A DNA stretch of 64,000 bases from an uncultured Chloroflexia bacterium (GTDB lineage Bacteria > Chloroflexota > Limnocylindria > Limnocylindrales > CSP1-4), in NCBI GenBank assembly GCA_963712585.1, contig CAVQIH010000012.1:36692-100691 (forward strand), written 5' to 3'. The position numbers were made by a program, and so were the translations under genes. Below, one piece after another: positions 2,179 to 42,419 of the stretch (positions are counted from its first letter, which is position 1; each line of letters starts with the position of its first letter). The notes under the pieces were generated by a model. The model did no database searches. It saw only the letters and a list, made by a program, of their open reading frames with translations, and had not been told where the DNA came from.

Positions 2179-2865
2179 CTAACGACGGCCGAGGGCGTCC
2201 CGCCGGTCGAGGCCGTCCCGGCGGTCGATGTCGCGCAGCGTCAAGCCGTCCGGGTCGAGGGTCCGCCAGACCGAAGGATCGATGCCGCGCACCTGGATCG
2301 CGTCGAGCAGCCCGACCAGCGAGGCGCGCCCAGACGCCAGGAGCCGCTCGACCACCGGCAGGGCGATCGCGCGACGCAGGGCGCACGGCAGCGGCCGCAG
2401 GGTCCCGTCCTCGACGAGGGCGGTCGCAGCCACGCCCTCGTCGGCCAGGCCGGTCACGAGCGCTCGGAGCACTGCGGGTTGGAGCGACGGCATGTCGCCG
2501 GCGGCAACGACGACGACCTCGGCCCGGGCGGCCCCCAGCCCGGCGCGAACTCCGGCCAGAGGGCCGAGGCCCGCGGCGGCGTCACGGACGACGCCGATCT
2601 TGACGTCCGCGCGGCCGGGCCCCCGGCCGTGCCCGGGCTGGGGCAGTGACGGCCTGGGGCCGTAGGGCGCGATCGCCACCAGGACCTCGTCGCAGACCTC
2701 GGCCAGAGCCAGCACCGGCAAGTGCAGGAGCGGCCGGCCTTCCACGATCACGGCGAGCTTGTTCGAGCCGAACCGGCGAGAGCGGCCGCCGGCGAGCACC
2801 AGACCGCTGACCTCGGGGACCGCGCCACGGGCGCCACCCTGCCGTCCGTGGCGGCCCTCGGTCAT
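2179..2865 (-). CDS. mobA: molybdenum cofactor guanylyltransferase MobA
   Basis: N-terminus has LAGGRSRRFGSNK (GTP-binding signature). It overlaps the selB stop by 4 nt, so it sits in the sel operon. Confidence 0.8.
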   Translation of the reverse strand: MTEGRHGRQGGARGAVPEVSGLVLAGGRSRRFGSNKLAVIVEGRPLLHLPVLALAEVCDEVLVAIAPYGPRPSLPQPGHGRGPGRADVKIGVVRDAAAGLGPLAGVRAGLGAARAEVVVVAAGDMPSLQPAVLRALVTGLADEGVAATALVEDGTLRPLPCALRRAIALPVVERLLASGRASLVGLLDAIQVRGIDPSVWRTLDPDGLTLRDIDRRDGLDRRDALGRR

Positions 2866-4790
2866 CGGGCGGCTCCCGGCGCCCGCGGGCCGGGCAGGTG
2901 GCCATCGGGCGTGCGACGCAGGAGCCCTCGCCGATCGAGATCCTCGAGGATCGCCAGGGCGTAGCGCCGGCTCGTTTTCGTCGCGTCGCGGAAGATGGCC
3001 GGCGAGAGCGGTCCTGCCGCCGCCAGCCGGAGCGCCAGCGCCTCGAGCTCGCCGTACGTCTGCGCGGCATACGCCAGGTCGGGCTCGAGGCGGACGATGC
3101 GCCCGCTCGCCTCGAGGGCCCGGATGCCTTCGGGCGGGCAGCGCGTCGCGCGGACGGCGGCCATGAACGGGGGTGGCGCCGCCAGGGCCAGGGTCGCCTC
3201 GAGTCGGTCCATGGCGATGCGAACCTCCGCCGGCAACCCGGGCGACCGGCGGGGGTCGCGCACGAGGTCGCCGTCACGGGCGAGCCGACCGTTTCGAACC
3301 AGGTCGTCGACGAGCGCTGCCACCGCCGCCGCGGCCTCCGGCGGCGCGATGGTGGCCCTCCGCCGCAGCGAACGGGCCAGCCGCGGCCGCAGCTCGGCCA
3401 GCGCCAGACCGGCGGACTGGGGCTGGCCGGCGTGATGGGCCGCGACCTCGGCCAGCGCCTCATCCGCGAGGGCTTCAGCGAGATCGCCCGCCAGGACCGC
3501 GGGTCCGAAGCGCGCGGCTCGATCGTCAGTGAGCCCGGGGAGGATGCCGGCGTCCGAGGTGATCGCTCCGTGAAGCTCGACGAGGGCCGCCGCACGGGTC
3601 CGCGGATCGCCCGCGTCACGGATTGCCAGGACGGCTGCGTGCGTCAGTCGACGACGCGACGGACCCACGGGCGGTCGCGGGTCGAGGACCCGGCCGCCTC
3701 CCGAAGTGAGGGCGGGCGATGGGCGGCGGAGCGCGAAACGGTCACCGGCGGCGACGGCGACGGGCTCGGCCAGGTGCAGCACCGTCACCAATCGGCCGTC
3801 CGCCTCCACGTCGGCGCGGTTGCGCCGGATCCTCGCGTCGACCTGGGCGGTTCCCAGGTGCAGCCGCAACGGCACTCCATCTCTGAAGGGACGGCCTTCG
3901 AGCCTCGCGGCGCGGCCGAGATCGGCGGCCGGTCGCAGCTCCACCAGGAGGCGATCGGTGACGACGACCTCGGGATCGGCGGTCAGGATGACACCGCGGC
4001 GAACCGACTCGAGCTCGACGCCGGCGAGGTTGAGGGCCACCCGGCCGCCACCCTCGACGCGCTCCCTGGTCTCGCCGTGAACCTGGATCTCGCGGACGCG
4101 GGCCCGGCCGGAACCAGGCTCCACGCGGAGCTCGTCGCCACGCGCGATCGGGCCACCGCGCAGGGTCCCGGTGACCACGACGCCGCGGCCGTGGACGACG
4201 AAGGCCCGATCGACGGCCAGGCGCGGCCGCCCGCCACCCGCCGCCGTAGCGCTCGTCGCGGCCGCCGCGGCGGCCACCTGGTCGCGCACCTCGACGAGCG
4301 CGCGCACCAGCCGGTCGAGCCCCTCGCCGTTCGCGGCCGAGACCGCGACCACCGGCGCCCCGGCGAGGCTCGTCCGCGCCAGCAGCGACCCGACGGACTC
4401 GCGGACCGCGGCCGGTCGGGCGTCGTCGGGCCCGCACAGGTCGATCTTGGTGACAACGGCCAGCCCGTGCGCGATACCCAGGGCATCGAGCAGCTCAAGG
4501 TGCTCGAACGTCTGCGCCCGCGGCCCGTCGTCGACGGCCACCACGAGCATGGCCGCGTCCACTTCACCCGCTCCGACGAGCATGTTCCCGACCAGGCGGT
4601 CATGGCCGGGAACGTCGACGAAGTCGAGCTCGCTCCCGTCGGGGAGGGCCAGGTGGGCGTAGCCGACGTCGATGGTCATGCCCCGCCGACGCTCCTCCGG
4701 CAGGCGATCGGCGTCGATCCCGGTGAGCGCCCGCAGCAGCGCCGTCTTGCCGTGGTCGATGTGGCCGGCCGTCCCAATGGCGACGGTCAT
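2862..4790 (-). CDS. selB: selenocysteine-specific translation elongation factor SelB
   Basis: Starts [29 protein letters not shown] (GTPase G1-G3 motifs). At 642 aa with winged-helix C-terminal extensions it fits SelB rather than EF-Tu. Overlaps selA by 4 nt. Confidence 0.9.
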
Positions 4791-6292
4791 GAGGGGCCGG
4801 CCCGCCGGGACCTTGCCCGTGGTCCAGCTGAGGCGGCCAGAGCCGCCTCCGGTGAACCGGCGAGGACCGGCCCCAGGCTCGTGGCCAGGGCCACCGCGAG
4901 TCGCTCGTCGTCGGCCGGGTCGACCGTTCGCAGGTCGACGACCACGAAGTCATCTTCGATCCGTCCGACCACGGCCGGACTTCCCGACCGGAGGGCGGCC
5001 AGCACGCGCTCCGCCGAGCGGACCCTGAGCGCGAGCCCCCATGATGGGAGTGTCTCGCCCGGCAGCGAGCCCCCACCGACGGTCGAGGACAGGGTCGTGA
5101 TCGTCACGCGCCCGTCGTCCAGCCGCGCCGCCAGCACTTCCGCCCGCGTCCGCAGCTGGGCGGGCCTGGCGGCGATCATCCGCCAGACCGGGATCTCGGT
5201 GGCGGCGACCCCGGCCCGGTAGAGGGCCAGCGTCGCGGCGACCCCCGCCAGGATCGTCTTGTCGGGGCGCATCGCCCGGGCGAGGGGATCGCGACGGATC
5301 CTGGCTACCAGCGTGGCACGGCCGACGATGAGGCCGGCCTGAGGTCCCCCGACCAGCTTGTCGCCGCTGAACGTGACGAGGTCCGCGCCAGCGGCCAGCC
5401 GTTCGGCCGGCGTCGGCTCGTGGGCGAGGCCGAAGCGCTCGGTCGGCAGGAGCGCCCCGCTGCCGAGATCGTCGACCACCGGAGCTCCGAACCGGCGGGC
5501 CAGAGCGGCCAGCTCGGCCGGATCAGGGGCCTCGACGAAGCCCTCCATCCGGAAGTTCGAGGGGTGCACCCGCAGGACGAGAGCGGCCCGCCCCGACTCC
5601 AGCGGTTCGGCGAAGTCGCCCACGCGAGTCCGGTTGGTCGTCCCGACTTCGATCAAGCGGGCTCCCGCCCGCCGCACGATCTCGGGGATTCGCACGCCTC
5701 CGCCGATCTCGACGAGCTCGCTCCGGGCAACCGCGACGCCGCGCCGGCCGGCCAGGCCGACGGCCAGGGCGAGCGCCGCGGCGTTGTTGGTGGCAATGAG
5801 GGCGTCCTCGGCGCCAGTCAGCGCCATGAGGTGCTCCTCGGCAGAACGGAAGCGGGCGCCACGGCGGCCGGTCAGGCGGTCCAGCTCGAGGAGTGACGGC
5901 GCCCTCGCTGCGGCGGTCGCTGCGGCGATCGCGGCAGCGGGCCAAGGAGCGCGGCCGAGGTTCGTGTGGAGGATCACCCCCGTGGCATTGATCGCGGCCA
6001 CTAGGCCGGCGCCGGCCGGGTCGGCGTAGGCCGCGAGGCGCTCGGCCACCTCGCCCGCAAGCCCGGGCAGCGGCGTCGGTGGCAGCCCGCCCGCCAGGCG
6101 GTCGCGCTCGTCGGCGATGACGGCGCGCGCGACGCCGAGCAGTGCCTCGTGCTCGCGGGCGGTGGTGAGCGACCGCGCGGCGGCGAGGAGCCGCTCCACG
6201 CTGGGCGGCCGCGCGGCGGAACGAGCCATCGGCCAAGGATAGGGTGACTTGGGGCGCGCCGTCCTCAGATTCGCCGGATCCGGGCGAGCCAT
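4787..6292 (-). CDS. selA: L-seryl-tRNA(Sec) selenium transferase SelA
   Basis: Carries the PLP-fold SelA signature ...[12 protein letters not shown]...[18 protein letters not shown]. An alternative start MARSAAR at 6229 is possible. Confidence 0.9.
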
Positions 6293-6870
6293 GCGTGCAC
6301 GTACTCATGGGGCATGAGCGTGTCCAGCGACTCCTGGTCGATCGCCTCGACGACCCAGCCCTTTGCGAAGCTCGCCCGAAGGTCCCGTCGAGAGATGCGC
6401 GTCGGACCGTAGCCGAAGGGGTTCCGATCGCTCCAGCAGAGGACGACACAGGTTGCTCCCGGCCGCACCACGGCCCGCAGGCCGGCCACATAGGGCCGAC
6501 GCTGGTCCGGTTCGAGGCAGTGGAACAACCCGACGTCCAGCGCACAATCGAAGACCCGGCCGAGGCTGCCCAGGTCCAGCGCGTCGTGCACCAGGAAGAC
6601 CGGGTTGAGGCCGCGCGCAACGGCCTTGGCCTGTGCCTTCTCGATCGCCGCCGCGGCGAGGTCGACGCCCGTGACCGCGTGGCCCCGAGCCGTGAGGTAC
6701 AGCGCGTGCTCGCCCGTCCCGCAGCCGACATCGAGGACGGAGCCAGTGATCAGGCCTGCCTCGGCGAGCCGGACGATGGCGCCCTGTGGCCGGCCGACAT
6801 CCCACGTCGGCGTGCCTTCATACGCGTGGTCGAAGAAGGTCACCAGCTTGCCTTTCCCGTCGTCGGCGGG
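6265..6870 (-). CDS. class I SAM-dependent methyltransferase
   Basis: Only the C-terminal ~200 aa of the long 6265-8025 ORF look real: LDVGCGTGEHALYL..GHAVTGVDLAAAAIEKA.. (SAM-binding motif I). The start is uncertain (possible GTG near 6844). Confidence 0.55.
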   Translation of the reverse strand, partial: PADDGKGKLVTFFDHAYEGTPTWDVGRPQGAIVRLAEAGLITGSVLDVGCGTGEHALYLTARGHAVTGVDLAAAAIEKAQAKAVARGLNPVFLVHDALDLGSLGRVFDCALDVGLFHCLEPDQRRPYVAGLRAVVRPGATCVVLCWSDRNPFGYGPTRISRRDLRASFAKGWVVEAIDQESLDTLMPHEYVHAWLARIRRI

Positions 6871-6998
6871 GCCGGTCCCGTCGGGCCGGGGGTTCAGCCA
6901 TGGGGCATGGCGGGTCGCTCGGCACAGCCCCAGTCGAGGAACATCATCGCGCCCCCGACCGAGGTCGGGGGCGCGATGGCGCGCTGGGAAGGGTGGAC

Positions 6999-8009
6999 TC
7001 AGAAGACGCGGATCGACACCTCCGCGGGGGCGAGAAGCAGCTTCTTGAGCTCGTCGTCCACTTTGAGCAGCGAGATGTGGGCACCCGCCATCTCGAGCGA
7101 CGTGCAGTACTCGTTCACGTAGCTGCGGAAGACCTTGATGCCCTTCTCGGCGAGCTTCTTGTGGGCGATGCCGTACAGGAGGTAGAGCTCGCTGATCGGC
7201 GTCCCGCCCAGTCCGTTGACCATCAGCGCGACCTCGTCGCCCTTCACGAACGGAAGGTCGGGGACGATCGCGTTGAGCAGGATGTCGACGATCTCGTTGG
7301 CGCTGACGAGCTTGGTCCGCTGACGGCCCGGCTCGCCGTGGATCCCGATCCCGATCTCCATCTCGTCGTCGGCGATCTCGAAGAGCGGGGTCCCGCGGAC
7401 GGGCGGAGTGCACGAGCTGAGGGCGATGCCCATCGTTCGGACCTGGCCGATGACCTTGTTGCCGACCCGCACGAGCTCGTCGAGGCCGGCACCCTTCTCC
7501 GCGGCGGCGCCCACCGCCTTGATCACGAAGAAGTTGCCCGCCACGCCGCGCCGGCCGACCGTCCAGGTCGAGTCCTTGACCGCCACGTCGTCGTTGACGA
7601 GGAGGGTCTCGACCTTGATCCCCTCCGCCTCGCAGAGCTCGCGGCCCATCTCGAAGGCGGCCTTGTCGCCGGTGTAGTTGTTGACGATGTGGAGGACGCC
7701 CTTCGCCGAGTTCATGAGCTTCGACGTCTCGACGACGAACTCGACGGGCGGCCCGGCGAAGACGTCGCCCGGGCAGGCGGCGTCGAGCATGCCGGGGCCG
7801 ACGATCATGGTGTGGGCCGGCTCGTGACCCGAGCCGGAGCCCTGGATGATCGAGACCTTCTTGTCGGACGGCATGTCGGCCCGGTAGATCAGGTTGTACT
7901 TCGGCTCGTACTTGAGCGCACCGCCGCTCGCGAGCTGGATGCCCTCGAGGAACTCGGGGACGAACTGCTTCGGGTCGTTGACGAACTTCTTCACGCCTGT
8001 TCTCCTCAC
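6999..8009 (-). CDS. dhaK: dihydroxyacetone kinase subunit DhaK
   Basis: Intact 336-aa ORF with Dak1-domain motifs: IIQGSGSGHEPAH, GDKAAFEMG. Confidence 0.9.
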   Translation of the reverse strand: MRRTGVKKFVNDPKQFVPEFLEGIQLASGGALKYEPKYNLIYRADMPSDKKVSIIQGSGSGHEPAHTMIVGPGMLDAACPGDVFAGPPVEFVVETSKLMNSAKGVLHIVNNYTGDKAAFEMGRELCEAEGIKVETLLVNDDVAVKDSTWTVGRRGVAGNFFVIKAVGAAAEKGAGLDELVRVGNKVIGQVRTMGIALSSCTPPVRGTPLFEIADDEMEIGIGIHGEPGRQRTKLVSANEIVDILLNAIVPDLPFVKGDEVALMVNGLGGTPISELYLLYGIAHKKLAEKGIKVFRSYVNEYCTSLEMAGAHISLLKVDDELKKLLLAPAEVSIRVF

Positions 8010-8665
8010 TTCCCGTGCTTCTCACGCCATGCGGCCGCGACGGCCTGCAGGATGACGCCGATGGCCGTGGCCCCGGCGTCCACCGAGCCGATGCTCCGCT
8101 CGCCCGTGTACGCGGCCCGGCCGCGCATCGCGAGCATGGACTTGGTCTCTTCGGCCGCCTTCACCGCGACGTCGGCAGCCTTCTGGATCGCCTCGACTCC
8201 AGAGTCCTGCCGCGTCGCGGGGTCGGCAAAGCTGGCTTCGAGGCTGTCGGTCGCCGGGACGAGCGCGTCGAGGAGTGTCTTCTCCCCGAGTGACGCGCCG
8301 CCCCGCGCCATGATCCCGGTGATCGCCGCCCGCAGGATGGCGACCACGTCCTCCGGGGCGAGCTCCGTCTTGTCGCCCGCAGCCGCCCCCGCGCGCAGGA
8401 ACGCGGTCCCCCAGATGGGGCCGCTCACGCCCCCGACCTTGCCCGAGAGGACGATCCCGACCTTCTTGAGGATCGTCCCGACGCTCGTGTGGTCGAAGGT
8501 GTCGTAGTCGCTGAGGACGACCTCCCATCCGTTCCTGAGCGAGTAGCCGAAGTCACCGTCGCCGACGACCGAATCGAGCTGCGCAAAGTAGACCGCGTTG
8601 TCGACGATCGTGCTGGCCGTCGTCTTCAGGACGAGATCGAGATCGTCGAGCGACGACTGCGTCAT
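8006..8665 (-). CDS. dhaL: dihydroxyacetone kinase ADP-binding subunit DhaL
   Basis: Dak2 domain: VGDGDFGYSL..SGGTSGPIWGTAF. Overlaps dhaK by 4 nt. Confidence 0.9.
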   Translation of the reverse strand: MTQSSLDDLDLVLKTTASTIVDNAVYFAQLDSVVGDGDFGYSLRNGWEVVLSDYDTFDHTSVGTILKKVGIVLSGKVGGVSGPIWGTAFLRAGAAAGDKTELAPEDVVAILRAAITGIMARGGASLGEKTLLDALVPATDSLEASFADPATRQDSGVEAIQKAADVAVKAAEETKSMLAMRGRAAYTGERSIGSVDAGATAIGVILQAVAAAWREKHGK

Positions 8666-8704
8666 ACGAACCTCCCTTCTGTGGCGGTGCCACCGGCAGG
8701 GCGA

Positions 8705-9471
8705 TCAGGAAGCGAGGCAGGCTTCCAGGTCGCCCAGGGTGATGTAGTCACCGGGTCGTGCCCCGCTTCGATTCGCGAGCACGACCGTCTTCTCTCCCCC
8801 GGGGTCTCCGAGGGACGACACGACCAGGATTGCTTCGCTGTTGTCCTCCTCTTCGGTGTACCCGTTGACGGTCATGAAGCAACGGAGGCCGGCTCCGATT
8901 GCCGCGAGGAGTCCGTTGCGTGAGTCTTCGATGACGAGCACTTCGGCCGGTCGCACCCCAAGGCGCTCGAGGGCGAGCAGGTAGATGTCGGGGGCCGGCT
9001 TCTTCTTCGCCACCACGTCCCCCGCGAGGATGAGGTCGAAGCGGGCGGCCCGCTCGGGCCCGACCGCCTTGTCGAGGATCGCCTTCACCGACAGTTCAGC
9101 GGACGTGGAAGCGACCGCGAGCGTCCAGCCGGCATCCTGGGCCGCGGTGATGATCCGCTTGATCCCGGGCCGCGGCGGCAGCCTCCCGGCCTCCACCATC
9201 TCCGTGTAGATCTGCGGTCTTGCGCTTGTGCCACTTCGCGAGCTCGGCGGCCTGGCCCTCGGGGTCCCCCGGCAGACCGTTCGCCCGAACGAAGTCGGGC
9301 GTCAAGCAGGCTCGCCATCCGTTCCTTGCCGCCGGCGATCAGGAGCTTCTGGCCGTACTCCTCCTCGGACCACTGCGACCGGTAGCCCGAACTCTCTGAA
9401 GGTCTGGTTGAAGGCAGGCAGGTGGCCGTAGCGCTCGGTGTCCGCGAGGACGCCGTCGCAGTCGAAGATGA
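8705..9471 (-). pseudogene. HAD-superfamily hydrolase (CbbY/phosphatase-like), at least 3 apparent frameshifts in 9200-9400
   Basis: N-terminus is [13 protein letters not shown] (HAD motif I) and C-terminus is LVIEDSRNGLLAAIGAG (motif IV). The middle is spread over three frames. The GTG start overlaps the fba stop. Confidence 0.6.
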
Positions 9472-10330
9472 GGGTGCTCACCAGGCCTTGCCCTCGCTGC
9501 CGAACATCCGGATGTGGTGCTTGGCCATCTCGAGGACGGCCGCCCGCTGGGCCTTGAAGATCGACGGCGGGTCGTACTCGCCCGGGTGCTGCGGTCATGT
9601 AGTCGTAGCCCGACTGCATGAACGCGATCTTCAGAGCGGTGGAGATGTTGACCTTGGCGCAGCCGCGCGCGATGAGGTCGGTGAACTGCTCTGGCGTCAT
9701 GCCCGTGCCGCCATGAAGTGCGACCGGGATGCCGGTCGCGGCAACGATGTCGGTCACACGCTGGTTGTCCAGCTTCGGGGTCGTCTTGTACATGCCGTGG
9801 GCGTTGCCGATGGCGGGGGCGAACACGTCCACTCCGGTCGCCCTGACGAAGTCGACGGCGGCCTCGAGCGACTGCTCGTTCACGCGCTCGTCGTCCGCCA
9901 TGTCCTCGACGCGCTTGAAGCCCTCGATCTCGCCCTCGACCGCGGCGCCGTACCGGCGCGCCTCGGCCACGACCTCGATGCACTGGCGCTTGTTCTCCTC
10001 GACGGACAGCTTCGAGCCGTCGAAGAGCACCGAGTTCCAGCCCGCCTCGAGACAGGTGCTGATGACGTCCCGCTCGGGACAGTGGTCCAGGTGAAGGGCG
10101 ACCGGGACGGTGATGGGACGGGTCATCTCGACCCACATGCCATACAGGACGTCCCGCCCTAACTGCTTGACCGTCTTGACCGACGTTTGAATGATCAGCG
10201 GAGCCCGCAGCTCTTCTGCCGCGGCAAGCACCGCCTCGAGCGTCAGGTCGTTGACTACGTTGATAGCCGCGACACCGAAGTGATCCTTGAACGCCTTTTC
10301 AAGGATCGCCTGGGTAGGCACGACAGGCAC
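9468..10330 (-). CDS. fba: class II fructose/tagatose-bisphosphate aldolase (one apparent frameshift near 9575-9595)
   Basis: Has HLDH and ALHGGTG motifs plus [10 protein letters not shown]. The C-terminus ...[44 protein letters not shown] is recovered in a shifted frame. Confidence 0.75.
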
Positions 10331-10448
10331 GCTGCACCTCCTGCCGGGGACGCAACTCTCTGTTCAGCGCTTCTCGAAGGAATAGGCCGCCAGCCCGACG
10401 CACCTGCCAGCCTGGAGACCCCGACATCGCGCGCGATGTCTCACCGTG

Positions 10449-11471
10449 CTATCGCCGATCACCTCCCCGTGCTGCCGAGCGCCGTCCCAGGGACATCCGA
10501 CCAGTCCCGGCCATCTCTCCGGCCCCGTCCAGGACGGCGCGGGCGTTGCCCTCGTCGACGATCAGGACGTCGATGACGCCCGCTCGCAGGACTCCCAGGA
10601 TCGCCTGTGGCTTCTCTGTCTCGCTGACGACCGCGACGACGGTCTCGATGCGGCGAAGGTCCTCGATGGAGAGGGCGATCAGCCGGCTGCTGTGGGGCGA
10701 AGCGATGAGGTTGCCCCGTGTATCCACGTAGTTGCCCAGCACGTCTCCGACGGCGCCCTGGTCGCGGAGCCAGGCGATCTCCTCGGGGGAGAGACAGCCG
10801 CTGCGCACCATGGTGCAGGCATCGTCGGTACCCCCGATGCCCACCAGCGCCACGCTGGCTTGAGCCGCCAGGCGGAGCGTGTGGGCGACGGCCTCCTGCT
10901 CGAGGAGTCGGTCGCGCATCTCGGCGCTCTCGACGTAGGCGGGCGCGTACAGGGGTTCGGCTCGTCCCCCGCACCTCTCGGCCAGCGCCTGGCAGATCTC
11001 ATTGGGGTTGGTCGGCGTGTCCACGCGGGGTGAGCCACCCATGGCGCTGGCAAACGTGCAGTCGAGCCTGTGCCCGGGTCGGAAGAAGCGAGGGACCTCG
11101 CCAGTGTCACGCCCATGGCTGACTGCCACCACGGTTCCATCGCGAAGCCGCCGCTCGAGGTACTGGGCGGCGCCCCGCGCGACCGCCTCGCGCTGCGACT
11201 GAGGATCGGTTCGGGGTTGGCTGACGATGGCGTCAGAGAGCCGGAAGACTTCGCGGAGCTGCTCTTCCAGGTCGAGGTGGAGCCAGGGCGGGGCCTCGAT
11301 GTGGATGCTCACGACCCCCGACCACCGCGCCCGCTCAAGGAGCCGCTGCACCTTCGGACGGGACAGGCCGAACTCGCGCGCGGTCTCCTGCTGTGTCCGG
11401 CCGTCCATGTAGTACCGGTGGGCGATGCGGGCGAGGAGCTCGTAGTCGTCCAAGCCGAAGTCTTCGGGCAA
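10449..11471 (-). CDS. SorC/DeoR-family sugar-binding transcriptional regulator
   Basis: N-terminal HTH (LARIAHRYYMDGRTQQETAREFGLSRPKVQRLLERAR) followed by a SorC sugar-binding domain. Lies upstream of the fba-HAD-dhaLK cluster. Confidence 0.8.
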   Translation of the reverse strand: MPEDFGLDDYELLARIAHRYYMDGRTQQETAREFGLSRPKVQRLLERARWSGVVSIHIEAPPWLHLDLEEQLREVFRLSDAIVSQPRTDPQSQREAVARGAAQYLERRLRDGTVVAVSHGRDTGEVPRFFRPGHRLDCTFASAMGGSPRVDTPTNPNEICQALAERCGGRAEPLYAPAYVESAEMRDRLLEQEAVAHTLRLAAQASVALVGIGGTDDACTMVRSGCLSPEEIAWLRDQGAVGDVLGNYVDTRGNLIASPHSSRLIALSIEDLRRIETVVAVVSETEKPQAILGVLRAGVIDVLIVDEGNARAVLDGAGEMAGTGRMSLGRRSAARGGDRR

Positions 11472-11599
11472 TGGAACACCTTCGGCGCGTGATCAGATGC
11501 TCACTCGTGGACAGATACGCAGTCTATGCCCAACGCGGAGGCCATACAAGGGCTCGCTGCTGCGATCGTCGGAAACGGGTCGACCGGATGCGGACGACT

Positions 11600-11696
11600 T
11601 GGCGGGAGCGCATGGGAGTCGAACCCACCGCGTCACGTCGAGCGTGGCGCCACCGGTTTTGAAGACCGGGGGACCCACCGGGACCCCTCCGCTCCC
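11600..11696 (-). tRNA. selC: tRNA-Sec (selC), anticodon UCA
   Basis: Reverse complement reads GGGAGCGGAGGGGTCCCGGTGGGTCCCCCGGTCTTCAAAACCGGTGGCGCCACGCTCGACGTGACGCGGTGGGTTCGACTCCCATGCGCTCCCGCCA. It is 97 nt with an 8-bp acceptor stem, a CU-UCA-AA anticodon loop, a long variable arm, and a T-loop GGTTCGACTCC. CCA is encoded. Confidence 0.85.
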
Positions 11697-11777
11697 GCAT
11701 CGGATGGTAGCGCGGGCGTGCCCAGCCCCGGTTGGCCGCCGGGTCCCCGCCGCCCGCCGCCCCCTTATCATCGGCCC

Positions 11778-12903
11778 ATGTCCAGGCAGACCATGTCTGA
11801 GCACCCCGAGCCAACACGGCCCGAACCGCCCCAGGCCGGCCGGCCCCAGCGTGCCGTGGCACAAGCATCCCCGCTCCGCCTGACCGAGCTCACGGATTGC
11901 GGGGGCTGCGCGGCCAAGCTCGGGGCCGACCTGCTCGCCGACGCCCTGGCCGACCTGGGGGCCCAGCGTGCACCCGCGGAGCTCATCGTCGGCCTCACCC
12001 CTCCCGACGATGCCGCGGCATACCTCGTGGCCCCCGATCTGGCGATCATCGGGACGCTCGACTTCTTTCCCCCGCTCGTCGACGATCCTCGAATGTACGG
12101 CGAGATCGCCGCGGCAAACGCGTTGAGCGATGTCTTTGCGATGGGCGGCCGAGTCCTGTTTGCCCTCTCGATCGCGGCCTTCCCCGAGGAGCTGCCGCGG
12201 GAGGCGATGGCGGCGATCTTCGACGGCGCTGCGGCCAAGGTTCGCGAGGCGGGCGGAGCGCTCGCCGGCGGCCACACGATCCGGGATCCGGAGCCGAAGT
12301 TCGGGCTCGCCGTCGTCGGCGCGGCTCACCCCGATCGCCTCCTGCGCAAGGGCGGGGCTCAACCGGGCGACGCCCTTGTCCTGACCAAGCCGCTCGGCAC
12401 GGGGCTCCTCGTCAGCGGCAGCCGCCAGGGCATGACGGAACCGCGACCACCTCGCCCGGGCGATCGATTCGATGTGCCGGCTGAATCGGCCGGCAGCCGA
12501 GACACTCGTCGCCGCAGGCGTGCGCGCGGCGACCGACGTCACCGGCTTCGGCCTGCTGGGGCACGGGCTCGAGATGGCCCGGGCGTCCGGCACCCGGTTC
12601 GTCTTCGAGGCCGCGACCCTGCCGGCGCTCGAAGGAGCGCGGACACTGGCGGCTGCCGGCGTGGAGACCGGCGGGGCGGCCCACAACCGGCGCTACGTGG
12701 CGCCGGCGCTCAGCGTCGGGCCGGAGGTTCAGCCCCCACTGGTGACGCTCGCCCACGACCCGCAGACCTCGGGAGGACTGCTCGCGGCCATCCGGCCCGC
12801 CAGCCTGGCTCGAACCCGGGCCGCCCTGCTAGCCGCCGGCGTGGAGCACTGGGTGATCGGCCGCGTGGAAGCCTCAGCCGAGCCGGCGGTCGCCCTGACC
12901 TGA
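11778..12903 (+). CDS. selD: selenide, water dikinase (selenophosphate synthetase) SelD, Cys-type; one apparent frameshift near 12430
   Basis: N-terminus has LTELTDCGGCAAKLG (the Cys/Sec motif, Cys here). PurM-like body with ...GGHTIRDPEPKFGLAVVG...; the C-terminal 143 aa continue in the neighbouring frame. Confidence 0.8.
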
Positions 12904-15008: not shown

Positions 15009-15596
15009 CAATACGTGCTCCGATGCTAGCCGGCATCGGTCGGTCGCCGCAATCGACCATCTTGACGGCGGCTGGGCGACGATGCTAGGTTGTTACCGTT
15101 CCCGTTAGCGCTAACGGGAACGGTAACAGGCGCTGCAGCGGCAATCAGGAGTCTCGGTCGAGTCCACGTCCTTCGGGAAGTCGTCGACGCCCGGCCCACG
15201 GCGCTCCCCGTGGCGCGCCAGACCAGCAAGGCCCTCGGGAGGCGTCGAGCCACTCGGCCGGATGGGTTGCAGCGATGCGTTCGCGGAGCGCCGACGCCGG
15301 ATGGAGAGGTCGGCGTCGAACGAGTCGAAGAACCCTGTTCGAGCTCGGGTCGGGGCGTGATCGAGGGACGAATGAGCTCGACTGCATCGGCAATTCCCAG
15401 CGGGTCGCCGAGTGCCTGGCCCGGCGCGGTGATCTTGGAGGAGGTGCCGATGGTGTCAGGGACGGCCTGAACCGCGATCGACGGCAGGCGCCGGCGTGCG
15501 GACTCGAGCCGCTCCGCATCGGCCGGACGCTGAGCCCCTGACCACGGCGCGCTCCAGCGAACTTCGAACCACACCATCGGAGACGGAGACCAGACA

Positions 15597-16662: not shown

Positions 16663-16764
16663 AGCCGGCAGTGCAGGCCTGACCGCGTCGAGGAGCGATC
16701 GCGGCGCGGAGCCGCCCGCTCGCCTCCTCGTCCACCGCACGTCCAGGCATCGCAGGGTAGCGCC

Positions 16765-20450: not shown

Positions 20451-20639
20451 GATCGAGGCTCGGCGGCGTCGGGACGAGACCTGGCCGGCGCCAGGCGCCT
20501 GCGGCGGTGGCGCGATCGGCGGGTCTGCGATCGGGGCGGCCGCCGTCGTCGTCGCGGTCGTGCGGGCGTCCAGCTCCTCGGTGCCTTCGCGGGGCGGGTC
20601 GCGGGACGGCGCGGTGCCGGCGGATCGACGGCCGGCGCC

Positions 20640-21061: not shown

Positions 21062-21239
21062 TGACCGAGGACGAGCGAGGCGATGAACGCGCGGACGGCC
21101 CTCGTTCCCGCTCGTCGCGTGCGCGCTGCTCGTCGGCGCGCTGCGGCTACATCGTGACGCCGGCAGGACGACAGCTCGCCGACGCCGGCGGCTGACCGGC
21201 GGCTGGACGCGCGGTCGCCACGAAGGTCGAGGCAGCCGC

Positions 21240-36756: not shown

Positions 36757-38680
36757 ATGCCGAAGGGCTACGTCCGGCTCACCCACCCGCTCGTGCGCGA
36801 TGCCCGCAGCGCGCCGTTCCGGCAGGCGACCTGGGAAGAGGCGCTCGACCGGACGGCCGCCGGTTTGCGCGTCGCCAGCGAGCGGGGCGGGACGCGGAGC
36901 TTCGGGCTGTTCAGCTGCTCGAAGGCGACCAACGAAATGAACTTCGCGGCCCAGAAGTTCGCTCGGGCCGTCATCGGCAGCAACAACGTCGATAGCTGCA
37001 ACCGAACCTGACACGCTCCCAGCGTCGCCGGTCTGGCGACAGTCTTCGGAGCCGGGGGCGGCACCAGCTCCTTCCGTGAGGTGGAGGAGACGGATCTCGT
37101 CGTCCTCTGGGGCTCGAATGCCCGCGAGACGCATCCGATCTTCTTCCATCACCTCCTCAAGGGGATCCACAACGGGGCGCGCCTCTACGCGGTCGATCCG
37201 CGCCGGACGAGCTCGGCGGCCTGGGCGGACGGCTGGCTCGGGCTCGACGTGGGAGCGGACATTGCGCTCGCCAACGCGATCGGTCGCGAGATCATCGCTG
37301 CCGGCCTGGAGCATCGCGGCTTCATCGAGCACGCCACGACAGGCTTCGAAGCCTACCGGGCCAAGGTCGAGCCCTACACCCTCGCCCACGCCGAGCGGGA
37401 GACGGGCGTCCCGGCCGACCTGATCCGCGAGCTCGCCCACGCCTACGCCACGGCCCCCCGGGCGATGATCTGCTGGACGCTCGGCATCACCGAGCATCAC
37501 AACGCGGTCGACAACGTCCTGGCCCTCATCGACCTGGCCCTCCTCACCGGCCACGTCGGCCGCTACGGGAGCGGCCTCAACCCGCTCCGCGGCCAGAACA
37601 ACGTCCAGGGCGGCGGTGACATGGGCGCCATCCCCGATCGGCTGCCGGGCTTCCAGCACGTCGAGAACGAGGAGCTGCGGGCGAAGTTCGAGGCGGCCTG
37701 GGGAGTGACCATCCCGCCCAAGCGGGGCTGGCACCTCTCGGCGATGTTCGAGGCGATGGAACGGCGCGAGCTCACCACCCTCTACGTGATCGGCGAGAAC
37801 CCGCTTCAATCCGAGGCCGACCAGGCCAAGGCCCGGCACGCGCTCGAGGGTCTCGACTTCCTCGTCGTGCAGGACATCTTCCTGACCGCCACCGCCCGAG
37901 CTCGCCGACGTCGTCCTACCAGCCTCCGCGTCCTGGGCCGAATCGGAGGGCACGGTCACCAACAGCGAACGTCGCGTCCAGCGCGTCCGGCGCGCGCTGG
38001 ACGCCCCCGGCGAGGCTCGCGACGACCTGGCGATCCTCTTCGAGCTGGCCCGCCGCCTCGGGGCCGACTGGGGTGCCCCCGATCCGGAACGCGTCTGGGA
38101 CGAGCTGCGCTCCCTGAGCCCGATGCACGCAGGGATGAGCTACGCCCGCCTGGATGCCCTCGGCGGCATCCAGTGGCCCTGCTACGACGAGGACCACCCG
38201 GGCGAGCTGTTCCTCCATTCGCGGCTCTGGGAGGACCCGCTACCCGGCCGGCGGGTGCCCTTCGTGCCGGTCGACCACAAGCCGCCGGTCGACCGGCTCG
38301 ATGACGACTTCCCGATCCGCCTGACGACCGGCCGCCGCCTCGACTCCTACAACACCGGCGTCCAGACGGCCGGCTATCGGTCCCCGTTGCGGCGCGGCGA
38401 ATCACTCGACATCTCGCCGGAGGACGCGGCCCGCCATGGCCTCGCCGAGGGCGAGAAGGTCCGCGTCGTGTCGCGACGGGGCGAGCTCGTGGCTCCGGTC
38501 CGGATCGATAAATCGCTCCGTCCGGGCCTGACCTTCATGACCCTCCATTTCCAGGACGACGTGGCGACCAACCTGCTGACGATCGACGCGACGGACCCCA
38601 AGTCCGGCACGGCCGAGTTCAAGGCGACGGCGATCCGGATCGAGAAGCTCACCGCCGCGGCGAGTGGCGGGGCAGGTTGA
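36757..38680 (+). CDS. fdhA: formate dehydrogenase catalytic (molybdopterin) subunit, selenocysteine-containing (in-frame UGA at 37009-37011); lacks the N-terminal Fe-S domain; one apparent frameshift near 37900
   Basis: RBS gggaggagg. ...[32 protein letters not shown]... aligns residue-for-residue with E. coli FdhF [32 protein letters not shown] (Sec140). Downstream ..NPLRGQNNVQGGGDMGA.., then after a 1-nt shift ..ELADVVLPASASWAESEGTVTNSERRVQRV.. and the C-terminal capping domain. Confidence 0.85.
37012..37050 (+). promoter_or_regulatory. putative bacterial SECIS element (hairpin GUCGCC-GGUCU-GGCGAC, 12 nt after UGA)
   Basis: The sequence after UGA is CACGCUCCCAGC, then the stem-loop. The E. 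coli fdhF SECIS has the same layout (UGA, CACGGCCCAUCG, stem, GGUCU apical loop). Confidence 0.6.
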
Positions 38681-39387: not shown

Positions 39388-41412
39388 ATGGACCTCCACG
39401 TCATCGCGCCGCTCGCGTCCCCGGCGGAACGTGCCGCGGTGGACGCCGTGCTCGATCCGGAGATCGGGCCGGCGAGATCGCGCTGGTTCGGGGCTCCCCG
39501 CGACGCGAGCGCCGACGGGCGAGCCGCTCGCGGGGGCCACGGGGCCCGAGCGCGCCGCGACCTGCTCCTCCCCGCGTTGCTCGCCGTGCAGGGCCGGGCC
39601 GGCTGGATCAGCCAGCCAGCGCTCGGCTACATCTGCCGCCGGCTGACCGTTCCACCCGCCGAGGCGTATGGCGTGGCGACGTTCTACGCCCTCCTGTCGC
39701 TCGAGGAGCGACCACCAGTGGTGGCCCACGTCTGCGAGGATCTCGCCTGCCGCCTGGCGGGATCGGAGGCGATCTGCGCGGACCTCGAGCGAACCCTCGG
39801 GCCCGAGAACGCTCCGGCCCGCAATGGGACGGTGGCCTGGCGGCGGAGCCCGTGCCTGGGTCGGTGCGAGCGGGCCCCCGCCGCCCTGTACACGGTTGCC
39901 GGTGAGGAGCCCGAGATGGTAACCGCGGCGCCGGTCGATGCCGCGCTGGTCATCGGCGCCCTCGACGCGGCAGCCGCCGGGCAGCAGCTCGCTCCCGTGG
40001 GCGTGGCGACGGCTCCGACGCCAGAGCGCCTGGCCGAACTCCGGCGCTCGATTCCGCAAGCGGGCTCGGGGGACCTGCTCCTACTGGGCCGGATCGGCCT
40101 TGCCGACCCGCGAAGCCTCGCGGACTACCTGGCTCGGGGAGGCTATCGCGGCCTCCGGCGGGCCCTCGAGCTCGGCCCCGAGGCGGTCGTCGAGGAGGTC
40201 ACTGCGGCGGGCCTGCTCGGCCGCGGCGGGGCTGCCTTCCCGACCGGCCGCAAGTGGGCCGCGGTGGCCGCTGCCCCTGCCCGTCCCCACTACACGGTCT
40301 GCAACGCCGACGAGTCCGAGCCCGGCGCGTTCAAGGACCGCGCCCTCATGGAGGACGACCCGTTCGCGGTGGTAGAGGCCATGACGATCGCGGGCTTCGC
40401 CACCGGCTCCCAGCGCGGCTACCTCTACCTGCGCGCCGAATACCCGCCTTGCGCCGAGCGTCTGGCGAACGCCCTGACCCAGGCCCGGGAGGCCGGCTAC
40501 CTCGGGCCGGACATCCTGGGCTCCGGCTTCGCCTTCGACATCGAGCTCCGGCGCGGAGCCGGGGCCTACGTCTGCGGCGAGGAGACGGCCCTCTTCGAGT
40601 CGATCGAGGGGCGGCGCGGCGAGCCCCGCAACAAGCCGCCGTTTCCGGTCGACGTCGGCCTCTTCGGCAAGCCGACCGTGGTCAACAACATCGAGACGCT
40701 GGTCAACGTCCTTCCGATCGTGGCCGATGGTTCCGCCGCCTTCAGCCGCATCGGAACCGCCGGCTCGAGCGGCCCCAAGCTCTTCTGCCTCTCGGGCGAC
40801 GTCGCCCGCCCGGGCCTCTACGAGGTCCCCTTCGGGACGACCCTTCGGGAGCTCCTCGAGCTCGCCGGCGGGGTACGGGACGAGGACCCGGCCCACGTCC
40901 CTGCAACCGCGGGCACCAACGACGCGAGCGGTCCGGGCCCGCTGGAGGTGTCGATCCAGGCCGTCCTCATCGGCGGAGCTGCGGGCACGTTCGTGGGCCC
41001 CGAGAGCCTCGACCTGCCGCTCACCTTCGAGGCAACACGGGAGGCCGGGGTGTCGCTCGGGTCCGGCGTCGTGATGGTCTACGGCCGCAACGCGGACCTC
41101 GGCGAGGCACTTCGGCGCATCGCGGCGTTCTTCCGTGACGAATCGTGCGGCCAGTGCGTGCCCTGTCGGGTCGGCACCGTCCGCCAGGAGGAGCTCGTGG
41201 CTCGCGTCCTGGCTGGGCGCCCGAACGGCTCGCTCGAGGCCGAGCTGGCGCTCTTCCGGGACCTCGCCCAGGCGATGCGCGACGCCTCGATCTGCGGGCT
41301 TGGCCAGCTCGCCTCGATCGCCATCGCCTCCGCGTTCGAACAATTCGACGTTGTCCCGGGTCGGGGCGCAGCTTCGGATAGGCCCGCCTCCCCCTCGGGG
41401 ACGCCGCGATGA
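39388..41412 (+). CDS. NuoE-NuoF fusion: NAD(P)H-binding flavoprotein/diaphorase subunit of formate dehydrogenase (FdsGB-like)
   Basis: N-terminal NuoE 2Fe-2S motifs (HVCEDLACRLAG...RSPCLGRCERAPA). C-terminal NuoF: GRGGAAFPTGRKW, GAGAYVCGEETALFESIEGRRGEPRNKPPFP (FMN/NADH site), ESCGQCVPCRVG (4Fe-4S). Intact 674 aa. Confidence 0.85.
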   Translation: MDLHVIAPLASPAERAAVDAVLDPEIGPARSRWFGAPRDASADGRAARGGHGARARRDLLLPALLAVQGRAGWISQPALGYICRRLTVPPAEAYGVATFYALLSLEERPPVVAHVCEDLACRLAGSEAICADLERTLGPENAPARNGTVAWRRSPCLGRCERAPAALYTVAGEEPEMVTAAPVDAALVIGALDAAAAGQQLAPVGVATAPTPERLAELRRSIPQAGSGDLLLLGRIGLADPRSLADYLARGGYRGLRRALELGPEAVVEEVTAAGLLGRGGAAFPTGRKWAAVAAAPARPHYTVCNADESEPGAFKDRALMEDDPFAVVEAMTIAGFATGSQRGYLYLRAEYPPCAERLANALTQAREAGYLGPDILGSGFAFDIELRRGAGAYVCGEETALFESIEGRRGEPRNKPPFPVDVGLFGKPTVVNNIETLVNVLPIVADGSAAFSRIGTAGSSGPKLFCLSGDVARPGLYEVPFGTTLRELLELAGGVRDEDPAHVPATAGTNDASGPGPLEVSIQAVLIGGAAGTFVGPESLDLPLTFEATREAGVSLGSGVVMVYGRNADLGEALRRIAAFFRDESCGQCVPCRVGTVRQEELVARVLAGRPNGSLEAELALFRDLAQAMRDASICGLGQLASIAIASAFEQFDVVPGRGAASDRPASPSGTPR

Positions 41413-42419
41413 CGCTCGACCCGATCATCCTCGAGCCGCCGGCGCGACCGAGCCGGCCGCCCGAGGCGCCCGGGCAACCCGTCCGGCCCTTGGTGGAGCT
41501 CATGCTCGACGGACAGCCGGTCGCGGTGCCCGCAGGGTCGACGATCCTCGACGCGTGTCGGGCGGCTGGCCTCGACGTGCCGACGCTCTGCTTCCTCGAG
41601 ACGCTCACCCCGGTGAATGCCTGTCGCATCTGTGTCGTCGAGGTCGCCGGCGCTCGCGCGCTCGTGCCGGCCTGCTCGCGACCGGTGGAGCCCGGGATGG
41701 CCGTTTCCACCGACTCCGAGCGCGTCCGCCTGAGCCGGCGCCTCGTCCTCGAACTGCTGGGGTCCTCGGTCGACCTCTCGACCGCGCCCGAGGTCGCCGG
41801 CTATCTGGGCCGCTACGGCGCCGATCCGGGACGCTTCGGCCCACCGGGCCCGGCCATGGCCCCCGCTGAGCGCGACCGGCGCGAGGCCGGTCGCCATGGC
41901 CCCGTCGGCGGAGAGACGGCCGAGACGGTCGCCCAGCCAGTCAAGGTCGACAACGAGCTGTACGTCCGCGACTACGCCAAGTGCATCCTCTGCTACAAGT
42001 GCGTAGAGGCGTGCGGGGTCGATGCCCAGAACACGTTCGCCATCGCGGTGGCCGGGCGCGGCTTCGACGCCCACATCTCGACCGAGGCGGGCGTCCCGCT
42101 CCCCTCGTCGGCGTGCGTCTATTGCGGCAACTGCATCGGGGTCTGCCCGACGGGCGCCCTGATGTTCCGAAGCGAGCACGAGATGCGGGCCGCAGGTACC
42201 TGGAACGACGCCTCCCAGGCCCGGACCGACACGATCTGCCCGTACTGCGGCGTCGGCTGCGCGGTGACCGTGCACGTCCAGGACGACCGGATCGTCAAGG
42301 TCACCTCGCCCCAGGAGTCGTTCATCACCGGCGGCCACCTCTGCATCAAAGGCCGCTTCGGCTTCTCCTTCGTCCAGGAGCGTCCGCCCGAGACGACGGC
42401 CGAGGCCCAGCCAGGGTAG
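41409..42419 (+). CDS. NuoG-like Fe-S protein: the N-terminal electron-transfer half of an NAD-dependent FDH alpha subunit ([2Fe-2S], 2x[4Fe-4S], Mo-enzyme N-terminal [4Fe-4S]), as a separate polypeptide
   Basis: 2Fe-2S motif ..DVPTLCFLETLTPVNACRICVVEV... Ferredoxin motifs CILCYKCVEACG and CVYCGNCIGVCP. Then ICPYCGVGCAVTVHVQDDRIVKVTSPQESFITGGHLCIKGRFG matches the FdhF N-terminus VCPYCASGCKINLVVDNGKIVR...GTLCLKGYYG. Overlaps the NuoEF stop by 4 nt. Confidence 0.8.
   Translation: MTLDPIILEPPARPSRPPEAPGQPVRPLVELMLDGQPVAVPAGSTILDACRAAGLDVPTLCFLETLTPVNACRICVVEVAGARALVPACSRPVEPGMAVSTDSERVRLSRRLVLELLGSSVDLSTAPEVAGYLGRYGADPGRFGPPGPAMAPAERDRREAGRHGPVGGETAETVAQPVKVDNELYVRDYAKCILCYKCVEACGVDAQNTFAIAVAGRGFDAHISTEAGVPLPSSACVYCGNCIGVCPTGALMFRSEHEMRAAGTWNDASQARTDTICPYCGVGCAVTVHVQDDRIVKVTSPQESFITGGHLCIKGRFGFSFVQERPPETTAEAQPG

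Follow-up and report, generated by a model that had tools for sequence, protein, structure and literature searches.

A conserved selenocysteine-insertion gene island and its formate dehydrogenase client in Limnocylindria-like Chloroflexota

Selenocysteine-insertion genes and tRNA-Sec

The window, by which we mean the whole 64,000-nt stretch of DNA analyzed here, contains an ordinary, complete bacterial selenocysteine (Sec)-insertion gene set together with one Sec-containing formate dehydrogenase (FDH) as its client. An earlier sequence-only reading of this DNA had listed a complete sel toolkit (selA, selB, selC and selD), and Pfam, NCBIfam, ARAGORN, Rfam and ORF translations place all features on its list at the positions it had given. 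The four sel functions were borne out by matches to TIGR00474, TIGR00475, RF01852 and, after removal of one base, TIGR00476.

Selenocysteine synthase is encoded by selA (4787..6292, minus strand). Its 501-aa product matches PF03841 with 368 bits, passes the curated cut-off of TIGR00474 (426 vs. 267.9 bits) and aligns to relatives as a single segment. The gene for the Sec-specific elongation factor, selB (2862..4790, minus strand), specifies 642 aa and scores 290.8 bits with TIGR00475, for which the cut-off is 242.25 bits. The Pfam domains GTP_EFTU, Beta-barrel_SelB, SelB-wing_2 and SelB-wing_3 make up the architecture of an EF-Tu-like GTPase with a C-terminal winged-helix SECIS-binding part, and residues 1-642 align to relatives without interruption. 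The next gene is mobA-like (2179..2865, minus strand). Both the selA/selB and the selB/mobA junctions are 4-nt ATGA overlaps, in which the selB ATG lies over the selA stop and the mobA ATG over the selB stop. These ORFs and junctions agree with the earlier description of selA, selB and mobA as one operon with 4-nt overlaps, and the three genes are probably co-transcribed; a scan for sigma-70 promoters and terminators was uninformative.

The tRNA-Sec gene selC (11600..11696, minus strand, 97 nt) was called tRNA-SeC(tca) by ARAGORN and scored 72.3 bits with Rfam RF01852, well above the gathering score of 47. Its anticodon is UCA, the variable arm is long, the acceptor/T branch is of the extended (8/5) kind and the CCA end is encoded. 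Length, anticodon and variable arm had all been described correctly, but the acceptor stem, thought to consist of 8 bp, has seven Watson-Crick pairs and a G.G at the eighth position. This G.G is kept in the tRNA-Sec of relatives across the lineage. The tRNA-Sec in the window is 100% identical to that of a relative belonging to another species (L012). In the tRNA-Sec of relative L081, the anticodon stem has undergone a compensatory change.

The gene for selenophosphate synthetase, selD (11778..12903, plus strand), was recognized from three-frame translations and, once one base is removed, from TIGR00476. Its product has Cys44 and Lys47 at the sites equivalent to Cys17 and Lys20 of the E. coli enzyme and is therefore of the Cys type, as had been proposed. 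The ATG at 11778 lies 81 nt (not 80) from the 5' end of tRNA-Sec on the opposite strand; judging from alignment with homologues, GTG at 11856 may be the true start.

MobA-like protein encoded behind selB

The 228-aa product of the third gene matches PF12804 with 94 bits, and its best NCBIfam models are those of MobA (NF001457, 74 bits; TIGR02665, 61 bits), with MocA reaching just 43 bits. We use the name MobA-like since these scores lie under every NCBIfam MobA equivalog cut-off (164 bits for NF001457 and 152 bits for TIGR02665). MobA models nevertheless beat MocA models in all 17 orthologues scored, and a profile of 17 orthologues matched the solved structures of MobA (2e8b, 4e-17; the E. coli protein 1e5k, 1e-13) far better than the MocA-related 2we9 (2e-7). 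A search of solved structures with the single sequence gave no match. The protein has the motifs LAGG (24-27), GPLAG (101-105) and GDMP; the first two are presumably the motifs that specify GTP in MobA, and their MocA counterparts are TAAG and GLLTS. Taken together, these comparisons point to a probable molybdenum cofactor guanylyltransferase.

A different role is conceivable: the protein might be another NTP transferase, such as the MocA/YgfJ-type cytidylyltransferase that belongs to the selenium-dependent molybdenum hydroxylase trait, or an enzyme with a new Sec-specific function. The distance to the equivalog cut-offs (74 vs. 164 bits at best) would fit such a role, and MobA-related COG2068 proteins are known to neighbor selD in this "third selenium trait" (PMC2432076). 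We consider it unlikely given the consistent preference of the orthologues for MobA models and structures, the presence of LAGG and GPLAG with their presumed meaning, and a neighborhood that holds selB, a bis-MGD-requiring FDH and fdhD, while none of the examined window genes stood out as an enzyme of the xanthine dehydrogenase type. The resemblance to the trait is that a MobA-family nucleotidyltransferase is linked in the genome to selenium-utilization genes. The differences are that the window protein resembles true MobA more than MocA, that its partners are selB and selA rather than an orphan selD, and that the associated enzyme is an FDH rather than one of the xanthine dehydrogenase type. 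With the guanylyltransferase as the preferred reading, the functional tie between MobA and a bis-MGD Sec-FDH proposed earlier holds in its logic.

Sec-containing formate dehydrogenase

The client gene fdhA (36757..38680, plus strand) was identified by TIGR01591, translations and conservation of its UGA, and is predicted to encode a catalytic subunit of 640 aa with Sec at position 85. The in-frame UGA is found at 37009-37011 in the motif SCNRT-U-HAPSV, where the Sec ligand is followed by His as in the FDH active-site motif NRT-U-HAPSV. A Sec-FDH had been noted earlier about 25 kb away, and the UGA is 24 kb from selD. It is kept in 53 of 53 sequences, and the closest homologues are all called from just past it.

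An apical SECIS hairpin of the fdhF type follows at 37024-37040 (plus strand). This hairpin, GUCGCC-GGUCU-GGCGAC, spans nt 16-32 relative to the UGA, and G23 and U24 lie in its loop GGUCU, as far from the UGA as they do in E. coli fdhF. Fifteen of the 17 hairpin positions never vary, among them all five third-codon positions; the other two, both in the stem, differ in one or two sequences, and wobble positions in the flanks vary. Our case for the SECIS is built on conservation because folding energy does not single the hairpin out in GC-rich coding sequence (the 60 nt after the UGA fold no better than shuffled sequence, z-score -0.6). The UGA at 37009 with its hairpin has no second example in the window. 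Four more in-frame TGAs (8707, 9302, 38678 and 44946) were weighed as Sec codons and dismissed: they are normal ends of genes or artefacts of frameshifts, and a SECIS hairpin accompanies none of them.

The catalytic subunit does not contain the N-terminal Fe4S4 domain. Its match to TIGR01591 (Fdh-alpha) covers positions 53-672 only and reaches 647 bits, below the cut-off of 666 bits for this model. Degradation of the N-terminus was considered as a cause and rejected, since the start residue is shared by all relatives and another subunit carries the missing domain. Downstream of fdhA lies a NuoE/NuoF fusion (39388..41412, plus strand; nuoF_fam, 422 bits) with the Pfam domains 2Fe-2S_thioredx, Complex1_51K, SLBB and NADH_4Fe-4S, the predicted diaphorase module of the FDH that would bind NAD(H), FMN and Fe-S clusters. 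Its stop is overlapped by 4 nt by the start of a gene for a NuoG-like Fe-S subunit of 336 aa (41409..42419, plus strand) with the domains Fer2_4, Fer4 and Molybdop_Fe4S4 (aa 281-332). The C-terminus of this subunit corresponds to TIGR01591 positions 1-51, that is, to the Molybdop_Fe4S4 domain missing from the catalytic subunit. Based on this domain layout, the FDH may act like Fdh-alpha, but as two polypeptides. The FDH accessory sulfurtransferase gene fdhD (42771..43649, minus strand) is also present, with scores of 217 bits for PF02634 and 163 bits for TIGR00129 (cut-off 141 bits).

Conservation of the island in related genomes

Dozens of species-level metagenome-assembled genomes of Limnocylindria-like Chloroflexota have the same arrangement, in which tRNA-Sec, selA, selB and mobA follow one another divergently from selD and the same Sec-FDH lies downstream. 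Upstream of selD, selA, selB and mobA are found in most of 80 related loci, and mobA comes directly after selB in 41 of the 46 relatives with enough flanking sequence. A tRNA-Sec is present in 57 of 60 scanned loci, and an FDH is located 0.1-9 kb downstream of selD in 52 of 81. The island is real, functional-looking and conserved in the lineage, and very probably represents a vertically inherited module of Limnocylindria-like Chloroflexota. The suggestion that its arrangement in this window is unusually compact did not hold up: such an island is the norm in the lineage and is tighter in relatives, with everything contiguous within 7.5 kb in L081. The copy in the window is in fact more dispersed, with 5.3 kb between selA and tRNA-Sec and 24 kb between selD and fdhA.

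The ancestral position of tRNA-Sec is immediately upstream of selA, where most relatives have it. A block of genes on the minus strand (6265..11492), identified by Pfam and, for the broken genes, translations, separates the two only in the genome studied here. It begins with a TPMT/TehB-like SAM methyltransferase (6265-6843), which overlaps the selA start by 28 nt, and continues with dhaK (6999-8021), dhaL (8006-8704), a HAD hydrolase (about 8705-9480), a class II aldolase (about 9480-10363) and a SorC-type regulator (10449-11492). These inserted sugar-metabolism genes have pulled the module apart in this genome.

Frameshifts in selD and fdhA

Three-frame translations show that selD switches frame at about 12436-12445, where there is a surplus base near 12439; a single frameshift had been noted earlier at about 12430. 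Taking one base out of GAA-C-CGC yields a 374-aa SelD that aligns with no gaps to homologues as much as 80% identical and retains every column invariant among them. The corrected protein scores 349 bits with TIGR00476 (cut-off 125 bits), while the deposited frame is broken. When aligned to the window, the ORFs of 86 relatives split at this site. The relatives themselves have a selD that is intact at this site, or that breaks at other sites. Metagenome contigs scanned for the exact pattern around the site, with 3 or 4 bases allowed, gave no match, and no identical record turned up for SelA, SelB or two selD products. On related contigs, nearly all of which have MFD contig names, selD, selA and selB are broken at varying positions. 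The frame of fdhA is also interrupted, by one extra C within a C run at about 37897, and the ORFs of 44 relatives mark this frameshift.

Other stretches of the window are rich in indels. An ABC ATPase gene (16868-18267) can be read through only with at least 10 frame switches, although every piece of it is well conserved, and the HAD hydrolase and the aldolase described above need three and one, respectively. Phase plots of GC3 flicker in the genes richest in GC, for example in selB, so these plots were not used alone to count frameshifts. We favor assembly error because of the frame switches in these three genes, the position of the extra C of fdhA in a C run and the preservation of the SelD columns. 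Consensus errors of a long-read-type assembly are the most likely source of the frameshifts in selD and fdhA, and the earlier suggestion of a sequencing error in selD is well supported by the indels across the window and by the intactness of the corrected protein.

Genuine frameshifts would tell of a recent loss of Sec use, with the island as a set of early-stage pseudogenes. It could be argued that, within about 13 kb of genes common with relatives, the two frameshifts backed by many relatives hit precisely the gene for the selenium donor enzyme and that of the sole visible selenoprotein, and that loss of the Sec trait, if very recent, would leave selA, selB, mobA and nuoEF intact as they are here. 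However, many more frameshifts lie in the unrelated genes listed above, and these come without the substitutions or stop codons expected of decay. After correction, no conserved residue is missing from SelD or FDH, which share about 80-86% identity with their best homologues; the tRNA-Sec is identical to the copy of another species, and the SECIS is intact. Loss of the trait seems quite improbable. Programmed +1 ribosomal frameshifting to regulate SelD synthesis was also considered, as an otherwise perfect gene is broken by a single base. This possibility is effectively refuted because the shift site is not conserved: homologues read through it unshifted, and wherever selD of a relative is split, it breaks elsewhere. 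The site also has neither a zero-frame stop nor a slippery context, the zero frame being open to 13205, which leaves this mechanism with next to no credibility.

The observations are very probably best explained jointly by a standard Sec pathway with a single visible client, inherited vertically as a Chloroflexota module that was pulled apart here, and by consensus errors as the source of the frameshifts. In practical terms, selD and fdhA of this record should not be labeled pseudogenes without a read-level check, and the UGA of fdhA should be annotated as Sec.

Proposed pathway and comparison with known systems

The steps of the pathway can be outlined by analogy with E. coli, where the system is well established. 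SelD would make selenophosphate and SelA would convert Ser-tRNA-Sec to Sec-tRNA-Sec. SelB with GTP would then bind the SECIS hairpin that starts 13 nt after UGA85 of the fdhA mRNA and bring Sec-tRNA-Sec to the ribosome, where the UGA would be read as Sec. In the finished enzyme Sec would ligate Mo or W in the bis-MGD cofactor, for which the MobA-like protein, translationally coupled to SelB via ATGA, may supply the guanylylated form and FdhD would carry out sulfuration. Such a scheme would tie guanylylation of the cofactor (mobA) and delivery of Sec (selB) together within one operon. An abundant uncultured lineage of soil and freshwater consistently keeps Sec for one formate dehydrogenase, providing a clean natural case of a recoding apparatus co-inherited with a single client.

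The same four components, including coupled selA and selB, are known from the selAB/selC/selD/fdhF system of E. coli, and the window FDH has Sec in the conserved U-H-x-P-S motif of FdhF-type enzymes. In E. coli, however, selC, selD and fdhF lie apart from one another and mobA is at yet another place, whereas here they form one lineage-wide island. The eighth acceptor pair of tRNA-Sec, which is G.G here, is a Watson-Crick pair in E. coli.

Clusters of sel genes beside Sec-FDH genes have already been described in other phyla. According to the descriptions of the respective gene regions, sel genes are clustered beside a Sec-FDH gene in Corynebacterium aurimucosum (cauri_0962-0968; PMC2830990), and Streptomyces incarnatus has a selABCD cluster near FDH-O (PMC4498112). 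These actinobacterial regions resemble the island in that selA, selB, selC and selD of a high-GC bacterium are clustered next to a Sec-FDH gene. As described there, their FDHs are of the membrane-bound FdnG or FDH-O type, in contrast to the NuoE/F-linked soluble enzyme with a split alpha subunit found here. A mobA joined to the selAB operon, as in the window, is likewise not reported for C. aurimucosum or S. incarnatus in these descriptions (PMC2830990, PMC4498112).

We offer a more specific reading tentatively, at somewhat less than even confidence: Limnocylindria-like soil Chloroflexota may keep their entire Sec machinery together as a heritable module for a single enzyme, with a divergent MobA translationally coupled to SelB. 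The client would then be an undescribed NAD-linked FDH architecture, in which the Sec Mo/W-bisMGD subunit would have lost its proximal Fe4S4 (FS0) domain, now located at the C-terminus of a separate NuoG-like subunit. The split alpha subunit may be of interest for FDH electron-transfer architecture. Among known enzymes, it can be compared with the NAD-linked, NuoEFG-like FDHs of the FdsABG type (TIGR01591), which resemble the window enzyme in the catalytic domain, in the NuoE, NuoF and NuoG-like modules alongside it and in the adjacent FdhD. Unlike these enzymes, the window FDH has its alpha subunit split exactly after the Fe4S4 domain, with model positions 1-51 on the Fe-S subunit and 53-672 on the Sec subunit, and it combines a Sec active-site ligand with a fused NuoE/NuoF.

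Organization of the selenocysteine genes

The bacterial selenocysteine pathway itself is textbook knowledge. Clusters of selA, selB, selC and selD adjoining a gene for a selenocysteine formate dehydrogenase (Sec-FDH) are described for Corynebacterium aurimucosum (PMC2830990) and Streptomyces incarnatus (PMC4498112). No literature linking Limnocylindria with selenocysteine was found, and the new elements reported here are modest: the lineage, the joining of mobA into the selAB operon and a split FDH alpha subunit. The closest SelD and FDH homologs belong to metagenome-assembled genomes (MAGs) that bear the labels Chloroflexota, Candidatus Limnocylindrales or Limnocylindria, with a top identity of ~86%, and exact-sequence look-ups returned no database record of the window's own proteins.

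Three minus-strand ORFs, selA (4787-6292), selB (2862-4790) and a mobA-like gene (2179-2865), were confirmed in the ORF table where the sequence-only reading had placed them. The 4-nt overlaps it had proposed are visible in the junction sequences ...CCCG-ATGA-CCGAG... and ...CTC-ATGA-CCGTC..., where the ATGA means that the downstream ATG shares four nucleotides with the upstream TGA. SelA scored 426 bits on the NCBIfam model TIGR00474 (cut-off 268). SelB scored 291 bits on TIGR00475 (cut-off 242) and contains the SelB beta-barrel and two winged-helix domains (NCBIfam, Pfam), and both collections place the third ORF among MobA-like NTP transferases.

We compared the window with 80 related genomic loci around selD using tblastn with window proteins. 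In most of them selA, selB and the mobA-like gene lie directly upstream of selD on the opposite strand. Where the 3' end of selB is complete and at least 750 nt follow it (46 loci), the mobA-like gene comes directly after selB in 41. Scanning 60 loci for tRNA-Sec located the gene in 57, where it shares the strand of selA and mostly lies just upstream of it; the three loci without tRNA-Sec are Acidimicrobiia or Actinomycetota outgroups. This synteny therefore points to an ancestral layout tRNA-Sec>selA>selB>mobA, divergent from selD. At one related locus, L081, the called genes mobA (211 aa)-selB-selA / selD-SHOCT-fdhA (86 aa)-UGA-fdhA (544 aa) fit within 7.5 kb, with operon overlaps identical to those of the window. 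In the window, 5.3 kb separate selA from tRNA-Sec and 24 kb, much of it sugar-uptake and sugar-catabolism genes and an Hdr-like cluster, separate selD from fdhA. The window therefore holds a more spread-out version of an island found across the lineage, and the earlier description of it as unusually compact does not hold.

The interval between selA and tRNA-Sec carries genes for a TPMT/TehB-like methyltransferase, dhaK, dhaL, a HAD hydrolase, a class II aldolase and a SorC-type regulator. The SAM methyltransferase (6265-6843, minus strand; PF05724 42 bits, PF03848 31 bits) starts at a GTG with GGAAAGG ahead of it and overlaps the selA start by 28 nt at its 3' end. TPMT/TehB-type families methylate selenium and tellurium compounds. 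Two related loci, L071 and L025, have methyltransferases of weak similarity (32%) in the interval from tRNA-Sec to selD. A GC-rich inverted repeat (CGCCCCCGACC..GGTCGGGGGCG) directly past the dhaK stop codon (6955-6985, minus strand) may be a terminator between the dha genes and the methyltransferase-selA-selB-mobA unit.

tRNA-Sec and the MobA-like protein

The sole tRNA that ARAGORN detected within the 64-kb window is a minus-strand tRNA-SeC(tca) at 11600-11696, which also scored 72.3 bits on Rfam RF01852 (gathering score 47). In its cloverleaf the D stem is 6 bp and the T stem 5 bp, the variable arm is long, and the terminal GCCA is encoded. The position and UCA anticodon in the sequence-only reading are thereby upheld, but its 8-bp acceptor stem is not: there are seven Watson-Crick pairs, and position 8 is a non-canonical G.G. 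Since this G.G occurs in essentially all of 64 related tRNA-Sec genes, it is a lineage-wide feature and not an error. The gene is 100% identical to that of L012, another species-level MAG, and the L081 gene shows a compensatory change in the anticodon stem (CCGG/CCGG to CUGG/CCAG).

The MobA-like protein contains the motifs VLAGGRSRRFG, GPLAG and AAGDMP, all three kept in 17 orthologs. Its best NCBIfam matches are MobA models (74, 69 and 61 bits, versus 43 bits for MocA/YgfJ), all scores being under the equivalog cut-offs. The top matches of a profile of the 17 orthologs are the MobA crystal structures 2e8b (4e-17), 3ngw (3e-14) and E. coli 1e5k (1e-13), against 2e-7 for the MocA-related structure 2we9. 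We class the protein as MobA-like and probably the guanylyltransferase. The selenium-dependent molybdenum hydroxylase trait features MobA-related COG2068 genes next to an orphan selD (PMC2432076). The window protein, in contrast, is nearer to true MobA, its partner is selB instead of an orphan selD, and its gene accompanies a bis-MGD enzyme and FdhD.

Formate dehydrogenase

A Sec-containing FDH had been placed about 25 kb away, and this was borne out by fdhA, 24 kb from selD, which runs on the plus strand from ATG 36757 to 38680 with an in-frame UGA at 37009 (NNVDSCNRT-U-HAPSVAGL). The best 120 database homologs (82-86% identity, 539-555 aa) all align to just the final 84-85% of the query, so gene callers must have begun them directly after the UGA. 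An FDH gene lies 0.1-9 kb downstream of selD in 52 related loci, and in nearly all of these the match starts at one of residues 1-5 of the window protein. The homologous codon is TGA in 53 of 53 sequences.

The hairpin GUCGCC-GGUCU-GGCGAC spans nt 16-32 after the U of UGA. Fifteen of its 17 positions are invariant among the 53 sequences, and the remaining two vary in one or two sequences each. All five third-codon positions inside the hairpin are invariant (53/53), while those flanking it vary freely, with the majority base in 17-45 of 53. Such a contrast in wobble positions is the signature of RNA-level constraint. Loop residues G23 and U24 occupy the same places as in the E. coli fdhF SECIS. 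Thermodynamic folding alone of the region after the UGA was not significant (z-score -0.6). In a scan of the window, whose frameshift-dense parts are poorly scannable, only UGA 37009 combined a two-sided coding signal with a suitable hairpin.

On TIGR01591 the catalytic subunit scores 647 bits and covers positions 53-672, while positions 1-51 (Molybdop_Fe4S4, PF04879) lie at the C-terminal end of a different polypeptide, a NuoG-like Fe-S subunit of 336 aa (41409-42419, plus strand). Upstream of this subunit is a NuoE/NuoF fusion (39388-41412, plus strand), the stop of which overlaps the subunit's start. With a YciI-like gene (38693-38974), the order is fdhA(cat)-yciI-nuoE/F fusion-FeS subunit, and fdhD (42771-43649, minus strand) is reversed. 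ORFs of relatives span 39304-42392 with up to 27 overlapping matches, and FDH alignments of relatives share the N-terminus of the window protein; both indicate that the fission is real and conserved. The FDH alpha subunit is thus split into two polypeptides, an arrangement shared by the relatives.

Frameshifts and assembly quality

Three-frame translation of selD (11778-12903, plus strand) bore out the earlier call of one apparent frameshift. The N-terminal AIRS half is in frame with ATG 11778, the C-terminal half is in the next frame, open from 12436, and the frames join at ...CAG GGC ATG ACG GAA C CGC GAC CAC CTC.... Removal of one base yields a 374-aa protein scoring 349 bits on TIGR00476 (cut-off 125), which aligns to eleven homologs (74-79% identity) with zero gaps and keeps all their invariant columns. 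In the motif LTELTD-C-GG-C-AA-K, we take Cys44 and Lys47 to correspond to E. coli SelD Cys17 and Lys20 by alignment, in line with the earlier Cys-type assignment. Because homologs begin ~26-30 residues further in than ATG 11778, GTG 11856 is the more likely start.

A +1 frameshift in fdhA, absent from the sequence-only reading, consists of one extra C in a C run at 37895-37897 (...ACC GCC ACC GCC C GAG CTC...). Among ORFs of relatives aligned to the window, 86 are split at ~12440 (selD) and 44 at ~37890 (fdhA). The class II aldolase has one frame switch near its C-terminus and the HAD (CbbY-like) hydrolase has three within ~300 nt; as a result the two genes (8705-10363, minus strand) merge into a single spurious ORF in which the TGA at 9302 looks in-frame. 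In a sugar ABC ATPase (16868-18267), eleven successive conserved pieces alternate among three frames, which requires at least ten switches in 1.4 kb. From ~14.5 to 23.9 kb, ORFs of coding composition never exceed ~70 codons, and LacI and ABC permease pieces are still recognizable. Dense single-base indels at 14500-23900 bear on every gene call in the window.

Good conservation and the absence of stop codons in each piece of the frameshifted genes argue against pseudogene decay. As judged from the assembled sequence, the indel pattern is that of a long-read consensus that was unpolished or of low coverage. Related loci with split selA, selB or selD nearly all carry MFD contig names and are split at differing positions; a programmed frameshift in selD is excluded by this lack of a conserved site. 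The many lesions of the same type in unrelated genes (aldolase, HAD hydrolase, ABC ATPase) as well as in fdhA, together with the conserved stop-free pieces, support the earlier suggestion of a sequencing error and make it very probable that the selD frameshift is an assembly artefact, with genuine, very recent loss of selD and fdhA function as the residual alternative.

Other genes in the window

No in-frame UGA was seen in the Hdr-like cluster (26900-34400). It includes a TusA-family sulfur carrier (27083-27403), an MvhD/FlpD-like ORF and a 934-aa flavin/Fe-S oxidoreductase with an HdrA-like start (both by eye), further Fe-S/flavin oxidoreductases and a hemerythrin-domain protein. A methyltetrahydrofolate:corrinoid methyltransferase-like gene (1390-2109) and mobA are convergently oriented. 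The segment 56451-58274 holds an MttB-family (trimethylamine methyltransferase-like) gene, and ORFs of relatives cover this region with up to 15 overlapping matches.
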